A stretch of 64,000 nt of DNA from an uncultured virus (IMG/VR IMGVR_UViG_3300010340_000980) (lineage: Duplodnaviria; Heunggongvirae; Uroviricota; Caudoviricetes), in IMG/VR virus record IMGVR_UViG_3300010340_000980. The stretch is one strand, 5' to 3'. The notes under the pieces are model-generated. The model was not told the DNA's origin and searched no databases. It saw nothing but the letters and a program-made list of their open reading frames with translations. Positions 57,985 through 64,000 of the stretch are shown here, in pieces; positions within the stretch are counted from its first letter, which is position 1; every line of letters starts with the position of its first letter. The position numbers and the translations under genes were made by a program.

Positions 57985-58329
57985 ATGTATAATATTTACC
58001 TAATTTCATCCACAATAGAAGGTGATACTTGTTATAAAATTGGATATACAAAAAGAAATCCTAGTCAAAGAATTAAAGAAATGAAGACTGGAAATGCTTC
58101 TAATTTAGAATTAGTCGAATCATTTCAATCTAAATGGGGAACTCAAATAGAGTCCAAATTACATAGATTTTTTCAAGACAAAAAAATAAGCGGTGAATGG
58201 TTTAGACTCACCGCTTATGATATTTCACAATTTAAAAAATTGTGTGAACAAACACATAATAGTTTTGAACTGTTATCCGAAAACAACACTTGGTTTCAAA
58301 AATCAAAATTGTATAAAAAGTTTAATTGA
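57985..58329 (+). CDS. GIY-YIG (T5orf172/MUG113-like) protein
   Basis: IYLI..YKIGYT..RIKEM.TGN..ESKLH..GEWF. Confidence 0.8.
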   Translation: MYNIYLISSTIEGDTCYKIGYTKRNPSQRIKEMKTGNASNLELVESFQSKWGTQIESKLHRFFQDKKISGEWFRLTAYDISQFKKLCEQTHNSFELLSENNTWFQKSKLYKKFN

Positions 58330-58642
58330 CTTTTACAAATTCAGAACTTTCAATAGCCTTATCAATCCATCGATTCAAAAATGATCCTTTGATCTCATTA
58401 TCAAAAGGAGTAGTTCCTAAATCATCAGATAGTTTAAGACCTTCTTTAATATACTCACTTATTGAATCTTCAAATCCAGTTTGAGAATACATCCTAAAAT
58501 TATCCTCAACAGTTGAAATTGGAAATTGATATAATCCACTTTCCAATTGCACCTGATAGTATAAATTACCAGATATATAATGACTAAATTTAGCCATCAC
58601 TTTACTTTTTAAAAGTTCTTTTTTTACTTCATTTGAATTCAT
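58322..58642 (-). CDS. hypothetical protein
   Basis: 106 aa. Confidence 0.65.
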   Translation of the reverse strand: MNSNEVKKELLKSKVMAKFSHYISGNLYYQVQLESGLYQFPISTVEDNFRMYSQTGFEDSISEYIKEGLKLSDDLGTTPFDNEIKGSFLNRWIDKAIESSEFVKVN

Positions 58643-58644
58643 AT

Positions 58645-58977
58645 TTATATTTTATTTATAGTTGGATATTTAGAATCCAATTCATCAATTACACTGAAAG
58701 GTGATCCACCCACTCCAGAATATTTAATATTTTCAAAACCATTTTCTTCTGTAATCATAGAATCTTTCTCATTGATTGCTCCTGTGAATTTATCAAAACC
58801 TTTCTTGTTTTCGATTTTACCAGTTGACGGATTATAAGAACCCCAATCAGCAGGTCTATCAGGACCAATAGGTTCTATAAAATAAGTTTTACCAGTTCTA
58901 TACGAATTTACAATAAATCTACCCGTTTCATCACGATTAGTTAAAAAATTCTTCCTAAACTCTAACATATTTTTCAT
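58645..58977 (-). CDS. hypothetical protein
   Basis: 110 aa, directly downstream of the tRNA cluster. Confidence 0.7.
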   Translation of the reverse strand: MKNMLEFRKNFLTNRDETGRFIVNSYRTGKTYFIEPIGPDRPADWGSYNPSTGKIENKKGFDKFTGAINEKDSMITEENGFENIKYSGVGGSPFSVIDELDSKYPTINKI

Positions 58978-58998
58978 AATTAATTTTATTTTTTTTAG

Positions 58999-59070
58999 TA
59001 GCGATACCAGGAATCGAACCTGGTCCTCAAGGATATGAGCCGAGTGAGCTTGCCGTTACACCATATCGCC
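58999..59070 (-). tRNA. tRNA-Met (CAT); could be Ile2
   Basis: GGCGATA acceptor, CT-CAT-AT loop, GGTTCGATTCC. Confidence 0.8.
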
Positions 59071-59075
59071 ATTTG

Positions 59076-59156
59076 TGCCAAGAGTGGGACTCGAACCCAC
59101 AAACCTTCAGGAACAGAGGTTTGAGCTCTGCGCGTTTACCATTTCACCATCTTGGC
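59076..59156 (-). tRNA. tRNA-Leu (CAA)
   Basis: cagag-CTCAAAC-ctctg, long variable arm. Confidence 0.88.
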
Positions 59157-59161
59157 ATTTG

Positions 59162-59233
59162 TTCCAATGACCAGAGTTGAACTGGTGTCTCACCGATACC
59201 AACGGTGTGTAATTGCCGTTATACGACATTGGA
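59162..59233 (-). tRNA. tRNA-Thr (GGT)
   Basis: caccg-TTGGTAT-cggtg; atypical TCCAATG acceptor. Confidence 0.75.
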
Positions 59234-59238
59234 ATTTG

Positions 59239-59312
59239 TAGTCCTGACCGGGTTCGAACCGATGACCTCTTGGATGTCGACCAAGCGCTCTAACCATCTG
59301 AGCTACAGGACT
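59239..59312 (-). tRNA. tRNA-Val (GAC)
   Basis: cttgg-TCGACAT-ccaag (C at position 33). Confidence 0.8.
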
Positions 59313-59315
59313 ATT

Positions 59316-60029
59316 TTAATAACTTTTTCCTTCTTTATATCTTTCTCTTCTTTTATGTCTTCCTTTTCCTCTATTTAATGCTTTATATGTTGGTGTTAAT
59401 GAGTGGCAATTTGGACATAATAACTCAAGATTATCAAGATTATTATTTTCTGAATTACCATCTATATGTTCAAGTTCTATTGGAACTTTATTTGTTATAG
59501 GATTTTTCTCACACCATCCACACCTCATACATTTTTCACCATATATCTCAATTAGAAATCTTTTAGCCATTTTTGAACCATGATTTACACCATTTCTAAT
59601 TTCATCAAATTTAATTTTTCTTTCCAGATTTCTTTGACATTTTATAGAACAGTATTTTCTTTTTAAGAACATATAATTTCTATCAATTTCATATTCCGAA
59701 TTACAGCTTTCACAAATTCGAAATATTTTCTTATCTTTTTCTATCAGAGAATTATCTTTGTTTATTTTTTCATCACTTTCTTTTAGATTTAGAAAAGTTC
59801 TCGAACAGCTCATTGAACAAAACTTTCTTTCTTCACTTATTAGACAATCAAATTCTTTATTACATTGTGAACATATCTTTTTCTCTCTTTTTAATTCATT
59901 ATATTTTGATTTTAATTTATATTTTGATTTTATTCTAACAACCGAAGATCTCGAAATATTCAAAATGTCCGCGATTTCATTATTAGTCAATCCTTGATCC
60001 AATAGATTTTCTAAAATTTGAATTTTCAT
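59316..60029 (-). CDS. HNH homing endonuclease with N-terminal HTH, inserted in the tRNA cluster
   Basis: IELEHIDGNSENNNLDNLELLCPNCHSLT; CxxC motifs. Confidence 0.85.
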   Translation of the reverse strand: MKIQILENLLDQGLTNNEIADILNISRSSVVRIKSKYKLKSKYNELKREKKICSQCNKEFDCLISEERKFCSMSCSRTFLNLKESDEKINKDNSLIEKDKKIFRICESCNSEYEIDRNYMFLKRKYCSIKCQRNLERKIKFDEIRNGVNHGSKMAKRFLIEIYGEKCMRCGWCEKNPITNKVPIELEHIDGNSENNNLDNLELLCPNCHSLTPTYKALNRGKGRHKRRERYKEGKSY

Positions 60030-60081
60030 ATTTTAATTTTTTATTTTATATATTAAAAATATGAGCCTCCCGTCAAAATAG

Positions 60082-60162
60082 AGCCAAGAGCCGGATTCGA
60101 ACCGGCGATGTTTGTGTTCCTCATTACAAGTGAGGTGGAGTCAACCGCTGTCCCATCTTGGC
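60082..60162 (-). tRNA. tRNA-Thr (TGT)
   Basis: cctca-CTTGTAA-tgagg. Confidence 0.85.
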
Positions 60163-60167
60163 GTTAA

Positions 60168-60278
60168 TGGAGGAAAGTTCTAAAAGTGGTTTATACTGAG
60201 GGATTTGAACCCTCTTTTATTGTGTTTAAGACAATTGTGTTAACCATTTCACGAAGTAACACTTTTAATTACCATCCA
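60168..60278 (-). ncRNA. tRNA-like ncRNA: D, anticodon (TAA) and T arms enclosed in a long non-tRNA stem
   Basis: GGATGGTAATTAAAAGTGTTACTTCG-[gtgaaatggttaacac / attgt-CTTAAAC-acaat / gagggTTCAAATccctc]-..CACTTTTAG..TTCCTCCA. Confidence 0.55.
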
Positions 60279-60282
60279 TTTG

Positions 60283-60365
60283 AGGTACTAACTGGATTCG
60301 AACCAGTGTGAGTGGTTTTGCAGACCACTGCCTTCCGTCTTATGACACCACTCGGCCATAGTACC
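60283..60365 (-). tRNA. tRNA-Cys (GCA) with enlarged D-loop
   Basis: gtggt-CTGCAAA-accac. Confidence 0.8.
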
Positions 60366-60370
60366 TTGTT

Positions 60371-60446
60371 GTTGGAATAGTAGGATTTGAACCTACGACA
60401 TTTCGCGTATCAGGCGAACGCTCTCACCAGGCTGAGCTATATTCCA
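60371..60446 (-). tRNA. tRNA-Ile (GAT)
   Basis: ttcgc-CTGATAC-gcgaa. Confidence 0.88.
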
Positions 60447-60451
60447 ATTTG

Positions 60452-60535
60452 TAGGTCCACCCGGATTCGAACCGGGGTTAACTTCTCGTCTCCACTTTGT
60501 AAGAGTGGGATGTTTTACCACTACACCATGGACCT
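60452..60535 (-). tRNA. tRNA-Val (TAC) with long variable region
   Basis: ccact-CTTACAA-agtgg. Confidence 0.8.
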
Positions 60536-60538
60536 ATT

Positions 60539-60619
60539 AAGGAAAGAAAACCTTAGAAGAGTATATTTTGAGCAAATATTAAAAATCAGCGAAGTAACTC
60601 TTTCTAATTACCATTCCTT
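60539..60619 (-). ncRNA. second copy of the GGTAATTA..GTTACTTCG stem ncRNA (no clear tRNA arms)
   Basis: AAGGAATGGTAATTAGAAAGAGTTACTTCG...ACTCTTCTAA..TTTCCTT. Confidence 0.45.
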
Positions 60620-60622
60620 TTG

Positions 60623-60703
60623 TCGGCGTGACTGGGATTGAACCAGCATTTTCACTTACCAATTACCCGTAGCAATCTTATCAGGATTGAGGGTTACACG
60701 CCG
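60623..60703 (-). tRNA. non-canonical tRNA-like gene (GAT, Ile), no D-arm
   Basis: CGGCGTG acceptor, caatc-CTGATAA-gattg, then GTAATTGG, T arm. Confidence 0.55.
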
Positions 60704-60729
60704 TTTTGTTCCAACTGGAACACTTTTTG

Positions 60730-60802
60730 CGGGTCAGGTGGGTAACGATCCCACTCTCCTCGGTTTAACAGACCGCCGCTGTACCATACTAGCTTCTGAC
60801 CC
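60730..60802 (-). tRNA. tRNA-Asn (GTT)
   Basis: cggt-CTGTTAA-accg; atypical T-loop. Confidence 0.7.
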
Positions 60803-60816
60803 TTGTATTCTTTTTG

Positions 60817-60903
60817 AGGACAGGGTGGGATTCGAACCCACGATGGAACTTTCATTCACCAGATTAACAGTCTGGACTTTTCGGCCACTAAAGCAACCCA
60901 TCC
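60817..60903 (-). tRNA. tRNA-Asn (GTT) with long variable arm
   Basis: ccaga-CTGTTAA-tctgg, GGTTCGAATCC. Confidence 0.75.
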
Positions 60904-60908
60904 TTTTG

Positions 60909-60981
60909 TAGCCCCTGCGGGATTCGAACCCACATTCTCGCTTTAGAAGAGCGATGTCCTGTCCAGTTGGACGAAGGAGCC
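60909..60981 (-). tRNA. tRNA-Arg (TCT)
   Basis: tcgct-CTTCTAA-agcga. Confidence 0.85.
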
Positions 60982-61036
60982 ATATTTGGGTTTTTACAAT
61001 ACCTTTCGGATATTTTCAGTCCCAACTCTGTTTTTG

Positions 61037-61125
61037 TACACTAGAAGGGATTCGAACCCCCATTTGATACTATCGCATCTCCAATTACGTATAAGGAGGT
61101 AGAAGCTCCCCTCGGATACTAGTGC
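61037..61125 (-). tRNA. non-canonical tRNA-like gene (TCT, Arg), no D-arm
   Basis: GCACTAG acceptor, ggag-CTTCTAC-ctcc, then GTAATTGG, GGTTCGAATCC. Confidence 0.55.
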
Positions 61126-61188
61126 ATTTTTATTTTTTAACGGGTTTAAGTTTCACAACTAAACCCGACCAGGATTAATTCCTGTTAG

Positions 61189-61276
61189 TGCCTCAGGTGG
61201 GACTCGAACCCACAACGTTTTCCACAAGGGTATTAGTTTCTAAAACTAATGCGTTTCACCGTTTCGCCACTGAGGC
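61189..61276 (-). tRNA. tRNA-Leu (TAG)
   Basis: ttagt-TTTAGAA-actaa, long variable arm. Confidence 0.85.
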
Positions 61277-61285
61277 ATTTATTCG

Positions 61286-61368
61286 TACCCAAGGAGAGAC
61301 TCGAACTCTCACGTCCTTTCAGACACCGGCTTCTTAGACCGGGGTGTCTACCATTCCACCACCTGGGC
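61286..61368 (-). tRNA. tRNA-Leu (AAG)
   Basis: ccggt-CTAAGAA-gccgg, Leu-type D-loop and variable arm. Confidence 0.75.
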
Positions 61369-61413
61369 ATTACCATTTCGCATTTTAAGAGTGCGATATG
61401 TCACCTTCTCTTT

Positions 61414-61489
61414 GTACTCCCCATCGGATTCGAACCGATACCTGTACAGGGTTTAAGTCTGTTGCCTCTGCCGATTGGGCTACGGGAGC
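61414..61489 (-). tRNA. tRNA-Leu (TAA) with short variable loop
   Basis: acaga-CTTAAAC-cctgt. Confidence 0.75.
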
Positions 61490-61499
61490 ATTTATTATA

Positions 61500-61631
61500 C
61501 TATATTACAATATTCCATCCTATTGACATTTCTATAATTGATTTCGCCATTGGAAAACATCTTTTTATTTCTTCCTTTTTCATTCCATTTACTTGACAGA
61601 ATGCCCTTCCATTTATCATTATAATTTTCAT
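61500..61631 (-). CDS. small hypothetical ORF (43 aa)
   Basis: MKIIMINGRAFCQVNGMKKEEIKRCFPMAKSIIEMSIGWNIVI; A-rich upstream region. Confidence 0.4.
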   Translation of the reverse strand: MKIIMINGRAFCQVNGMKKEEIKRCFPMAKSIIEMSIGWNIVI

Positions 61632-61661
61632 CTTTATTTTTTTTAATATTGTTTTTAAAAT

Positions 61662-61696
61662 AAAAAAACCCGAACTTCTTTCGATGTTCGGGTTTG
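61662..61696 (-). terminator. attenuator terminator upstream of the tRNA operon
   Basis: Minus strand AAACCCGAAC-atcgaaagaa-GTTCGGGTTT-TTTT. Confidence 0.85.
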
Positions 61697-61716
61697 TATT
61701 ATTTGGAGTTATTACT

Positions 61717-61827
61717 TCACCTTAAGATGAATCCAAATTTTGCACAACCCGAACCAACGGTTCTAATACATAACGTATTATTCACCATTGTGAGATTCAA
61801 ATTGATATTTAGATTCATTGTTTTCAT
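61717..61827 (-). CDS. leader peptide of putative tRNA-operon attenuator (36 aa)
   Basis: MKTMNLNINLNLTMVNNTLCIRTVGSGCAKFGFILR; contains GTTCGGGTT, complementary to the terminator 5' arm. Confidence 0.75.
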   Translation of the reverse strand: MKTMNLNINLNLTMVNNTLCIRTVGSGCAKFGFILR

Positions 61828-62226
61828 TATTTCTTATATATTAAAAAGTTTATGTCCCTTTTGATTTTGTTTTACAAATATAAGGTGGATTTTTTATCCC
61901 ACCAAATATTTTGTTTTTTAAATCTTTATGTGTTTGTTTTTATTGTATTACAAATATACAATAAAGTTTTAAATTTCCAAATTTATTTTAAATTTTCAAA
62001 GAAATCAGATAACTCCTTTATTAATTTTTCATTGTTTTTAACTATATCATCTGATTCCGGACTATTATAATTAATTGGGTTATCAAAATTTAAGTTTGTG
62101 TTAAAACCCTTTTTTTGACCCAATTTAACATATCAGATAAGGCCCAAAAAACTTCATCAGGTGTGTCACTTCCCCAAGAGTGTAGTAATGTTAAGAAAAA
62201 TTTATTCATCTTTATAACTATTTAGT

Positions 62227-62649
62227 TTATACTACTTCTAAAACTTCAATGTCAAAAATCAAAGTTTGACCAGCTAATGGGTGATTAGCATCAACGATAA
62301 TATTATCATCATTAACTTCACGAACCATAAATGTCACCATTTCACCATTTTGCATATTTGCTTGAAGAGATTGACCAACTTGTACGCCTTGTGGCGCATT
62401 AGTTTTTGGAACAGTAACTCTCAATTCATCTCTATATTCACCATAAGCTTCAATAGCAGGAATTTCAATAGTTTTTTTATCACCAGCAGAAAGACCTAGA
62501 ATACCATTCTCAAAACCTGGGATTAGTGATCCTTCACCAATAACGAACTCAATTGGTTCTCTACCATCTTTCAATGAAGAATCAAACTCTTCATTATTTG
62601 TTAAACGACCAGTATAATGGGCTTTAACTTTACTACCTTCTTTAATCAT
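62227..62649 (-). CDS. FKBP-type peptidyl-prolyl isomerase (SlyD/FkpB-like)
   Basis: HYTGRL..FDSS..LIPGFE..AYGE..VDANHPLAGQTLIFDIEV. Confidence 0.9.
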   Translation of the reverse strand: MIKEGSKVKAHYTGRLTNNEEFDSSLKDGREPIEFVIGEGSLIPGFENGILGLSAGDKKTIEIPAIEAYGEYRDELRVTVPKTNAPQGVQVGQSLQANMQNGEMVTFMVREVNDDNIIVDANHPLAGQTLIFDIEVLEVV

Positions 62650-62743
62650 TTTATTTAATTTAGTTTTTTATTTGTATAGAAAGATATTAAGAAAGTTGTG
62701 ACTCTACCTTCTTTAATATTTGTAAAGATATTAAGAAAGTTTA

Positions 62744-63118
62744 TTAATAGTCAACATTGAATAAGAAGTCTTTTTCAGGAAAAATCCCTTTTCTTCTAAA
62801 GTAATTTACTATATCATTAGTAGCAATATACTCATATTTACCAAGTTTTTTATCTTTATATTTTTGAATCTTATCTTCTAATTCTTCCAGAGTAGGATAA
62901 AATTTATAAGTAGATTTAGGGTTATTGTCCATAAATTTAACTAACCCATAACAACCTGTTCCATATTCTTGACCAATCTCAAACTCTAATTCAACCCCAG
63001 TGTGTTGTTTAAAAAGATCATATAGATCATAATTATTACAATCACCTTCAATCTCAAAATACTCAGAAAGTTTTATTTTAGGACTTTCATCAGATTCATT
63101 AAATTTTTTTATTATCAT
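62744..63118 (-). CDS. hypothetical protein (MIIKKFNES)
   Basis: 124 aa. Confidence 0.7.
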   Translation of the reverse strand: MIIKKFNESDESPKIKLSEYFEIEGDCNNYDLYDLFKQHTGVELEFEIGQEYGTGCYGLVKFMDNNPKSTYKFYPTLEELEDKIQKYKDKKLGKYEYIATNDIVNYFRRKGIFPEKDFLFNVDY

Positions 63119-63123
63119 AGTAT

Positions 63124-63519
63124 TTAAACAAGTTTATTATAGAAATTCCAAAGTTTCTTTTTATCTTTTAAATTTAAAATTGTAAAACCCTCCTCAAAAA
63201 ACCAATGTTCAGAATCATCATCTACACGACCATCCTCCTCAGCACTTTTTAAGTGTTCTGCAGCCATTTTATACATACTATCAAAGAACTTAACTTTATC
63301 TTCTGTTGTATAATCACTTAACTCAATTACCGCATCATTTTCAGAATTTTGTAATTCATCAAGTTCTTTTTGTTTTCTGACAATTTCTGCCTCAATTTCT
63401 TTTCTTCTTCTGTCTTTAAAAGAACTCGTCGTGTTATCTGGCTGTCCAAAAATTTTATCATGAAGATCCTTAATCGGATCTGTTGATTCTGATTTGTTAA
63501 ATTTTTTCAAGTGTTGCAT
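63124..63519 (-). CDS. hypothetical protein (MQHLKKFNKS)
   Basis: 131 aa; AATATATA upstream. Confidence 0.7.
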   Translation of the reverse strand: MQHLKKFNKSESTDPIKDLHDKIFGQPDNTTSSFKDRRRKEIEAEIVRKQKELDELQNSENDAVIELSDYTTEDKVKFFDSMYKMAAEHLKSAEEDGRVDDDSEHWFFEEGFTILNLKDKKKLWNFYNKLV

Positions 63520-63557
63520 GTATTAAAATTATTTTAAATATATATTAAAAAGTCCAA

Positions 63558-64000
63558 TTAAAAAACTGGACTTTTAATTTTTACATCTTCACCATATACA
63601 ATTACACCAACTTTATTCTCAATAGTTGAGAGTGGTGGAAATTCTACTCGGTCAATAACCCATCTTTCAATTAGTAGATCTGGATTGAGTCTTGCTTGGT
63701 GTTTAGCTGGAAGTCTTTCAAGTTCTGAAGAACTAAACTTAGTAACAACTCGCTTTCTTTGAATATAACTACCTCTCTTAAAAAAAGATGGATAATCATT
63801 CCAATTTACACCTTTTTGGAAAAGAAGTTCTTGTTTTTCAGAACCATTCTTACCCATAAGAAAATTATGTGAGTAGTATTCAGAAGCAGCCATTGTAATA
63901 GAGTTCTTGGTTGCATCTTTCTCTCTCCAATAGAAAGTATTCACAGCTTCATCTACATTTGGAACATTCCAAACTCGACAGTCAAATCTTGGCATTTTAT
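63558..64000 (-). CDS. Thg1-like (tRNA-His guanylyltransferase / 3'-5' polymerase), C-terminal part
   Basis: FDCRVWNVP...FYWREKDATKNSI...KGVNWNDYP.FFKRG; frame continues past the window end. Confidence 0.8.
   Translation of the reverse strand, partial: KMPRFDCRVWNVPNVDEAVNTFYWREKDATKNSITMAASEYYSHNFLMGKNGSEKQELLFQKGVNWNDYPSFFKRGSYIQRKRVVTKFSSSELERLPAKHQARLNPDLLIERWVIDRVEFPPLSTIENKVGVIVYGEDVKIKSPVF

Follow-up and report, generated by a model that had tools for sequence, protein, structure and literature searches.

A candidate leader-peptide attenuator with codons matched to the tRNA operon of an uncultured phage

The window analysed here, a stretch of 64,000 nucleotides (nt) of DNA from an uncultured virus of the Caudoviricetes (IMG/VR record IMGVR_UViG_3300010340_000980), carries on its minus strand a tRNA operon that is preceded by a short leader unit, and it is this unit, a candidate ribosome-dependent transcription attenuator, that is described in the following. 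The leader open reading frame (ORF; 61717-61827) consists of 36 codons plus TGA, with the ATG at 61827-61825 and the TGA at 61719-61717; it encodes the peptide MKTMNLNINLNLTMVNNTLCIRTVGSGCAKFGFILR, and the ORF is kept among the 43 distinct peptides of its family. An earlier reading of this DNA from the letters alone (the sequence-only reading) had listed the 36-codon ORF with its codons 1-24, and this listing proved correct letter for letter. On its 5' side the ORF adjoins an A-rich untranslated leader (61828-61874), in which the stretch next to the ATG, TTTAATATATAAGAAATA, is common to paralogous leaders. Further upstream two promoter-like motifs can be read, i.e. a proximal one of the form TTTG-N20-TATATTTG (61875-61906) with a hairpin in its spacer, and an upstream one (61951-61981) in which TTTG (61981-61978) is separated by 19 nt from TATATTTG (61958-61951). 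The sequence-only reading had named promoter motifs ahead of the ORF, although at 61906-61875 and 61981-61951 they lie outside the interval 61662-61842 to which it had assigned the element.

On its 3' side the ORF is followed by an intrinsic terminator (61658-61695), which is apparent from the sequence and from the pairing of its helix throughout the family. It comprises a GC-rich stem of 10 base pairs with the 5' arm AAACCCGAAC (61695-61686) and the 3' arm GTTCGGGTTT (61675-61666), a 10-nt loop, and a T-run that ends at about 61658. The operon itself (58998-61489, minus strand) contains 15 tRNA genes recognised by ARAGORN, with 13 distinct anticodons, the same 13 as in the sequence-only reading, together with one tRNA-like hit found by Rfam only and one inserted gene with helix-turn-helix and HNH features. 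The order of ORF, terminator and tRNA cluster holds as it had been given, except that an additional 43-codon ORF (61631-61500) precedes the first tRNA gene.

Judged by its sequence, the leader is built like a classical attenuator with four regions. Region 1 (61795-61818; leader nt 10-33, codons 4-11) is predicted to pair with region 2 when the RNA is free of ribosomes. Region 2 (61727-61755), delimited by duplex energy and covariation, would be the 5' strand of the antiterminator; its core GGTTCGGGTT (61755-61746) is included in codons 25-28 (GGT TCG GGT TGT) and consists of the same letters as the terminator 3' arm GTTCGGGTTT, which bears out the copy noticed in the sequence-only reading. Region 3 (61686-61707) comprises the terminator 5' arm and additional bases upstream of it that are paired in the antiterminator alone, and region 4 completes the terminator. 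The ORF also contains a hairpin (nt 38-73; 61755-61790) with the inner stem TAATAC/GTATTA and the loop GTTAT, which may be a pause hairpin. When the window RNA is folded before region 3 exists, nt 10-33 pair with nt 74-101 and the hairpin of nt 38-73 is nested between them; when region 3 is present and region 4 is not, nt 74-82 pair with the terminator 5' arm. The calculated duplex energies amount to -21.5 kcal/mol for 1:2 (null mean -9.5 kcal/mol, p = 0.003), -14.1 kcal/mol for the antiterminator 2:3 (p = 0.005 against random genomic segments) and -13.9 kcal/mol for the terminator 3:4. An exact-repeat statistic had also been tried for the antiterminator; it was uninformative, as T-runs dominate it, and duplex energies were used instead.

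The codons of the leader are matched to the tRNAs behind it. Decodability was scored by simple wobble rules, with anticodon TAT being allowed to read ATG, and background codon usage was taken from the long ORFs of the window and of the relatives' stretches. Of leader codons 1-24, 23 are readable by operon tRNAs, the sole exception being AAA at codon 2; each of the 13 operon anticodons has a cognate codon among them, and the four Leu codons are all different (CTA, TTG, CTC and TTA). All three properties had been noticed in the sequence-only reading and were reproduced on recomputation. Among codons 25-36 only 4 of 12 are readable. For the whole ORF, 26 of 35 codons are matched versus 13.3 expected (P = 1.4e-5), the fraction of the window's long-ORF codons that operon tRNAs can read being 0.377. 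None of 200,000 random codon draws reached 23 of 24 readable codons and 2 of 200,000 covered 13 anticodons, while none of 15,830 real 24-codon segments of long ORFs reached either mark (maxima 18 readable codons and 12 anticodons); of the 313 short ATG ORFs in the window just one reaches 23, and this is the leader. The permutation check against codon usage that had been proposed along with the sequence-only reading has hence come out in its favour.

Based on these features and on the comparisons given below, we regard the element as very probably a trp/his-type, ribosome-mediated leader-peptide transcription attenuator that gives negative feedback on phage tRNA supply. We infer that the leader is translated, that ribosomes stall in it, that its helices compete kinetically and that regulation runs in the following direction. 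Transcription would start at a Bacteroidetes-type promoter and a ribosome would enter the 36-codon leader. With ample aminoacyl-tRNAs for the Asn, Leu, Thr, Met, Val, Ile, Cys and Arg(AGA) codons the ribosome would pass region 2 and proceed to the stop codon, and region 2 would be masked by the ribosome or re-paired with region 1 behind it; the terminator hairpin 3:4 could then form and RNA polymerase would halt ahead of the tRNA genes. Slow decoding of any sensed codon would stall the ribosome between codon 2 and about codon 22, with region 1 held and region 2 free, and region 2 would pair with region 3 while region 4 is yet to be synthesised, so that the terminator would be blocked and the tRNA genes would be transcribed. 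As the leader is read by the same tRNAs that the operon encodes, such a circuit would constitute negative feedback on decoding capacity: newly made tRNAs would speed up leader decoding and the operon would be shut off, with feedback at the level of isoacceptors. The same module, equipped with other codon sets, is also found ahead of the other tRNA sub-operons in related huge phages.

Such relatives exist. In a blastn search against phage records the leader itself, besides the tRNAs, was matched in two uncultured phages, one of 642 and one of 635 kilobases (kb). Each of them has a homologous ORF and a similar tRNA block; the terminator stem is another one (CCCTCAG/CTGAGGG), and the ORF contains a copy of the 3' arm of this new stem. 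Further short ORFs, which head other tRNA blocks, lie behind the same promoter and 5' untranslated region (UTR). In a first scan of viral contigs with a 5'-UTR pattern, 13 of 18 stretches were unrelated and the other 5, from 3 contigs, were leaders. Six stretches, i.e. the window, the records of the two related phages and the IMG/VR contigs G001, G002 and G003, were then scanned for leader units. A unit had to combine a terminator hairpin with a short ATG ORF, the end of which lay no more than 110 nt ahead of the hairpin, and with a tRNA no more than 600 nt behind it. Before counting, 6 ORF rows were set aside: two of one 19-codon ORF in G002, which is not leader-like and lies 450 nt from a tRNA-Met, and those of overlapping or secondary ORFs (W02 72543, G002 2750, G003 20691 and G003 37495).

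This left 29 leader-terminator-tRNA units in seven classes. Leaders of class A (motif ..THKHFSKSSKWFS..) head tRNAs for Phe, His, Trp and Lys, those of class A2 (..TSKSSSRSS..) tRNAs for Arg(ACG/TCG) and Ser(TGA), those of class B (..YYYEE..) tRNAs for Glu and Tyr, and those of class B2 (..ISIAIIGGGAGA..) tRNAs for Ile(TAT), Gly and Ala. Class C, to which the window leader belongs (..MNLNMNLN..LT.VNNTLCIR..), is followed by tRNAs for Asn, Leu, Val, Ile, Thr, Arg(TCT), Cys and Met, class D (..VNPQPQDQD..) by tRNAs for Pro and Asp (and Gln), and class D2 (MTTTQQIQQQQINQTD), the leaders of which carry QQQQ, by tRNA-Gln. Pooled over the seven classes, the operons provide tRNAs for all 20 amino acids, and 175 of the 190 operon-strand tRNAs in the six stretches sit behind a leader unit. 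When leaders and operons were permuted within every genome that has more than one unit (five genomes) and scored by the summed decodable fraction, the true pairing was the single best of 120, 5040, 720, 6 and 5040 permutations, respectively; a correspondence between leader codons and tRNA content across related phages, put forward as a check of the sequence-only reading, is therefore present. Taken singly, whole-ORF enrichment against the codon usage of the long ORFs of the respective genome has P < 0.05 in 19 of the 29 units.

Moreover, leader codon choice follows the downstream tRNA at the isoacceptor level. In class A2, with Arg-ACG/TCG in the operon, 5 of 6 Arg codons of the sensing part are CGY, as compared with a background in which CGN makes up 10% of Arg codons, whereas in class C, with Arg-TCT in the operon, 7 of 7 (and 83 of 86 Arg codons in the wider family) are AGA, against a background of 81%. 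Likewise, 13 of 16 sensing-part Ile codons are ATA in class B2 with its Ile-TAT, and 11 of 11 (104 of 107 Ile codons in the wider family) are ATT or ATC in class C with its Ile-GAT, the background frequency of ATA being 44% in either case. These observations bear on an alternative in which the same attenuator hardware responds to general translation stress or amino-acid starvation, i.e. to uncharged tRNA, with no isoacceptor-specific feedback, the phage raising its tRNA output whenever host translation slows. Classical attenuators do respond to charged tRNA, and since eight amino acids are mixed in the window leader, a ribosome would stall there under many kinds of stress. Nevertheless, a general sensor would need neither an own leader with an own codon set for each sub-operon nor a codon choice that tracks the encoded isoacceptor, and extra tRNA gives no relief from a lack of amino acids, all of which renders this alternative improbable.

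Homologues of the window's own leader were fished with a 19-nt pattern taken from its ORF. The pattern matched 7 viral, 90 metagenome and 2 genome-contig stretches; the latter 2 lack leader and tRNAs and are chance matches, and the 90 metagenome stretches obtained with a single pattern mark the leader family as widespread. Of the 87 viral and metagenome loci that were read, five chance matches (L058, L082, L092, L101 and L124), sequences cut by contig ends and L123, in which no terminator was found, were dropped, leaving 57 distinct complete leader-plus-terminator sequences. The alignment has 47 rows, namely the window and 46 leaders (44 of the 57, with near-identical rows omitted, plus L001 and L002). 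In the sensing part, i.e. ahead of the antiterminator, the set M, N, L, T, V, I, C and R accounts for 979 of 1018 residues, versus 159 of 526 in the remainder of the ORFs; at the 28 loci with at least 2.2 kb of downstream sequence, 560 of 654 sensing codons are decodable by the downstream tRNAs, as compared with 75 of 345 codons outside the sensing part of these ORFs. In the 47-row alignment all 128 gap runs of the sensing part are divisible by three, versus 104 of 286 further on, and the column entropy is 0.35 bits at the first, 0.51 bits at the second and 0.76 bits at the third codon position. We read frame-keeping gaps and third-position variability as decoding signatures with selection on which tRNA reads each codon.

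The alternative helices covary in this family as well. Its 56 distinct members contain five terminator stem types, each with a fitting copy of region 2 in the own ORF, and when the types were tested crosswise the diagonal duplexes had energies of -12.5 to -17.1 kcal/mol as compared with -5.0 to -12.8 kcal/mol off the diagonal. In region 3, three types of Watson-Crick pair are seen at positions +3, +4, +6 and +7, and this is true of the 2:3 as well as of the 3:4 helix; at positions -3 to -5, beyond the terminator stem, covariation is with region 2 alone. In the family alignment, pairing in the terminator helix reaches 99.4%, both sides have changed in 4 of the 10 pairs, and none of 500 shuffles attained the covariation observed. 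Region 2 is paired upstream in 55 of the 56 folds computed before region 3 exists. The sequence-only reading had held that the in-ORF copy can sequester the terminator 5' arm, and the compensatory changes in both helices back this. The 5' half and the loop of the in-ORF hairpin are invariant in the family, an invariance that is partly due to selection of the sequences because both belonged to the 19-nt fishing pattern. What is established computationally is the anatomy of the unit, the match between codons and tRNAs, the covariation of the alternative helices and a constraint of the coding type on the leader, and the trp/his-type logic proposed in the sequence-only reading is supported by the codon-tRNA pairing, the frame-kept ORF and the covarying antiterminator and terminator.

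Expression of the tRNAs appears to depend on read-through of the terminator, as judged from the sequence between terminator and tRNAs, because in 28 of the 29 units no TAnnTTTG motif is found between the terminator and the first tRNA and because this gap is at most 25 nt long in 19 of the 29. TTTG / TAnnTTTG is the promoter consensus of Bacteroidetes, and the host is presumably a Bacteroidetes bacterium. The full promoter motif occurs within 130 nt upstream of 12 of the 29 leaders versus 238 of 12,000 random 130-nt windows. The spacer between the boxes of the window's proximal promoter is a hairpin (61903-61884) that is kept as a hairpin in G001-G003 although its sequence changes between units and genomes; the variants are GGTGGGAT..ATCCACC, GGTGT..ACACC and GGTGATT..AATCACC. 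A role as operator is conceivable, as is one as terminator for the preceding unit. Two Logan contigs from RNA libraries cover the leader, i.e. X5 (151 nt), which comes from a metatranscriptome library and spans 61712-61857 of a relative, and X6 (179 nt), which joins the 3' part of the leader to the first tRNA. Since carry-over of DNA is possible and the contigs have no transcript ends, they give no conclusion on transcription or read-through.

With these data at hand it is also possible to consider that the ORF codes for a small functional peptide and has its own terminator, the tRNAs arising from constitutive leaky read-through or from an unseen promoter. The ORF is indeed conserved with its frame kept, and a short hydrophobic, Asn-rich peptide is conceivable, but the conserved part is restricted to the amino acids of the downstream tRNAs, and the six other classes are quite different peptides that each fit their own tRNAs; the covariation of the in-ORF arm copy with the terminator and the lack of a promoter motif after the terminator in 28 of 29 units likewise speak against it, so that we rate it as highly improbable. 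Matches to Rfam leader families at the window leader stay far below threshold (Trp_leader, RF00513, 17.2 bits versus 41; Thr_leader, RF00506, 18.4 versus 55), and T-box (RF00230) is not among the 39 matches listed at E <= 10 for positions 58000-64000. Thus, although the choice between terminator and antiterminator is also the core of T-box and protein-dependent attenuators and although there is a conserved hairpin within the ORF, a translation-independent RNA switch, in which a tRNA (T-box-like) or a protein binds the leader RNA and makes this choice, is just as hard to maintain, as no T-box or other Rfam family reaches threshold at the leader, as the ATG, the gap runs that are in frame without exception and the excess of third-position variation point to decoding by ribosomes, and as many codons rather than one specifier track the tRNA set.

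Returning to the ribosome-mediated attenuator, we modelled its switching by imposing a ribosome footprint of assumed size on the folds. As a kinetic proxy, region 4 was taken as not yet made and folding was allowed solely for RNA located 3' of the ribosome. Under these conditions the terminator 5' arm is predicted to be already paired upstream (probability P > 0.5) in all 29 units when the ribosome stalls at an early codon, and in none of the 29 when it has reached the stop codon. Of the 285 codons matched to the operon, 234 fall within the stall-sensitive range, whereas among unmatched codons 266 of 517 do so (odds ratio 4.3). For the window leader P is 0.9 at codons 2-21, 0.6 at codon 22 (AGA), 0.4 at codon 23 (ACC) and 0.0 at codon 24 (GTT), which defines codons 2-22 (61762-61824) as the putative sensing part, in which a stalled ribosome would leave the antiterminator free; at codons 23-24 the modelled ribosome sits on the antiterminator itself. 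Anticodons GGT and GAC are sampled in the window leader solely by codons 23-24, and their codons are scarce in 28 relatives (0.21 and 0.07 per leader, respectively). Full anticodon sampling is therefore a trait of the window sequence and neither conserved in the family nor clearly functional: the statement of the sequence-only reading that the leader samples every anticodon is true of its letters, but not as a conserved or clearly functional property.

Several results weigh against the attenuator interpretation. Equilibrium folding with the footprint imposed favours the antiterminator at no more than 5 of the 36 A-site positions of the window leader, the terminator winning at most positions, and in 22 of the 29 units the antiterminator is favoured nowhere. 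On this modelling the switch would have to be kinetic and not purely thermodynamic, because equilibrium folding fails to predict it; kinetic switching is likewise the usual assumption for the trp attenuator. Only 18 of the 56 family members have a significant 1:2 duplex. Outside class C the antiterminators are weak (-5.3 to -13.2 kcal/mol versus -12.6 to -20.9 kcal/mol for the terminators), and only 11 of the 29 units reach p <= 0.05 against random genomic segments; in the six other classes the antiterminator is weaker, yet it is situated at the 3' end of the ORF in every case. As to the codons, AAA at codon 2 of the window leader has no matching operon tRNA, the rule that lets TAT read ATG slightly inflates a few match counts, and 10 of the 29 units have no individually significant whole-ORF enrichment. 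In class A2, 12 of 28 Ser codons are AGT, for which the operons hold no tRNA, and in the window's family TGT is retained at 13 of 28 loci though there is no tRNA-Cys in the cluster, the flanks being cut at 4 kb. Finally, homologous leaders are non-independent samples.

Some further observations concern the operons and their surroundings. In the window, the tRNA-like sequence found by Rfam only (61037-61125, minus strand; 89 nt, 30.7 bits) was not called by ARAGORN and its anticodon could not be read; the anticodon loop looks too long, and the sequence may contain an intron or be a degenerate tRNA. The gene inserted into the operon (59316-60029, minus strand) codes for 237 amino acids with an N-terminal helix-turn-helix and a C-terminal HNH match below threshold (19.0 versus 21.4 bits); by its sequence it looks like a homing-endonuclease insertion, and it splits the operon by 770 nt. 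The 43-codon ORF (61500-61631, minus strand) between terminator and first tRNA has no Pfam match and is absent from close relatives: in the closest relative the tRNA begins 12 nt after the terminator, and in RNA-library contig X6 61 letters take the place of the 222-letter stretch that holds it. This ORF, too, may be an insertion. Neighbouring genes code for an FKBP-type prolyl isomerase (62227-62649), a Thg1 C-terminal-domain protein resembling tRNA-His guanylyltransferase (63558-63995) and a MUG113/T5orf172 protein (57985-58329).

Among the relatives, AGT and AGC Ser codons are abundant in class A and A2 leaders (W01, W02, G001 and G003), and no tRNA-Ser(GCT) was found in the operons of these leaders. 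In or near leader-headed blocks ARAGORN reports tRNAs with 'anticodons' of two or four bases (gtag, acat, gtat, agta, attc, tt and gg), which are located in W02 (LR745206.1) at about 407.36 kb, in L048, L049 and L089, and in the G001 and G003 stretches. A lone tRNA-Met(CAT) lies directly upstream of the class B leader, outside the units, in 3 of the 5 relatives' stretches (W02, about 364.87 kb; G001, 13561; G002, reverse complement, 2568), and in G003 a lone tRNA-Met(CAT) is again outside any unit, far downstream of the class B leader of that stretch. If this is the initiator tRNA, it would be beyond sensing by elongation stalling.

It has long been asked why phages carry tRNA genes, and they have been proposed to do so in order to compensate for codon usage, to replace degraded host tRNAs or to escape tRNA-cleaving defences. 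If the attenuator operates as outlined above, the phage itself would measure its decoding capacity and express each tRNA block only upon slow decoding of the codons of this block, and the question of why phages carry tRNAs would become testable by simple reporters, i.e. which shortage, in which host, switches on which block. The leaders would also represent a natural set of orthogonal, codon-specific sensors of translation speed. One may go further and speculate that they are genome-wide, isoacceptor-resolved sensors of tRNA shortage that were selected for counter-defence and host-range flexibility: anticodon nucleases, other tRNA-depleting immunity or an ill-matched host tRNA pool would slow down particular codons and only the matching block of replacement tRNAs would be opened, a counter-defence role having already been raised as a possibility in the sequence-only reading. 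This wider role strikes us as rather doubtful.

A full-text literature search, with subscription journals and preprint supplements outside its scope, returned no published account of leader-peptide attenuation of tRNA genes. In the main text of PMC7162821, attenuat-, leader and terminator have 0 occurrences, and neither this paper nor PMC9693318 is relevant to leader-peptide control of tRNA genes.

Multivalent leaders are familiar from enterobacteria, where the ilvGMEDA leader senses Leu, Val and Ile and the thr leader senses Thr and Ile, in addition to the leaders of trp, his, leu and pheA. Like the ilvGMEDA and thr leaders, the window unit has a short leader that is rich in regulatory codons of several amino acids, an intrinsic terminator, a mutually exclusive antiterminator and a possible 1:2 pairing. 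Unlike these leaders, it would regulate tRNA genes instead of biosynthetic enzymes, so that its product would act directly on the sensor; moreover, it samples up to 13 anticodons, is viral, with a host that is presumably a member of the Bacteroidetes, and has no Rfam membership. The E. coli pheST leader is similar in that a gene of the translation apparatus which serves the sensed codons is subject to attenuation, but there a synthetase and one amino acid are involved, whereas in the window unit it would be the tRNAs themselves and many codons. With the T-box (RF00230) the unit shares the coupling of tRNA status to the choice between terminator and antiterminator upstream of translation-related genes; the T-box, however, binds uncharged tRNA via one specifier codon and without a ribosome, whereas the window unit would read out an ORF. 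Taken together, the hardware of the unit is that of known attenuators, while the class of genes under its control and the logic of its feedback would be new, and if the proposed mechanism holds, classical attenuation of amino-acid and synthetase genes would be extended to tRNA genes, the product of which feeds back on the sensor.

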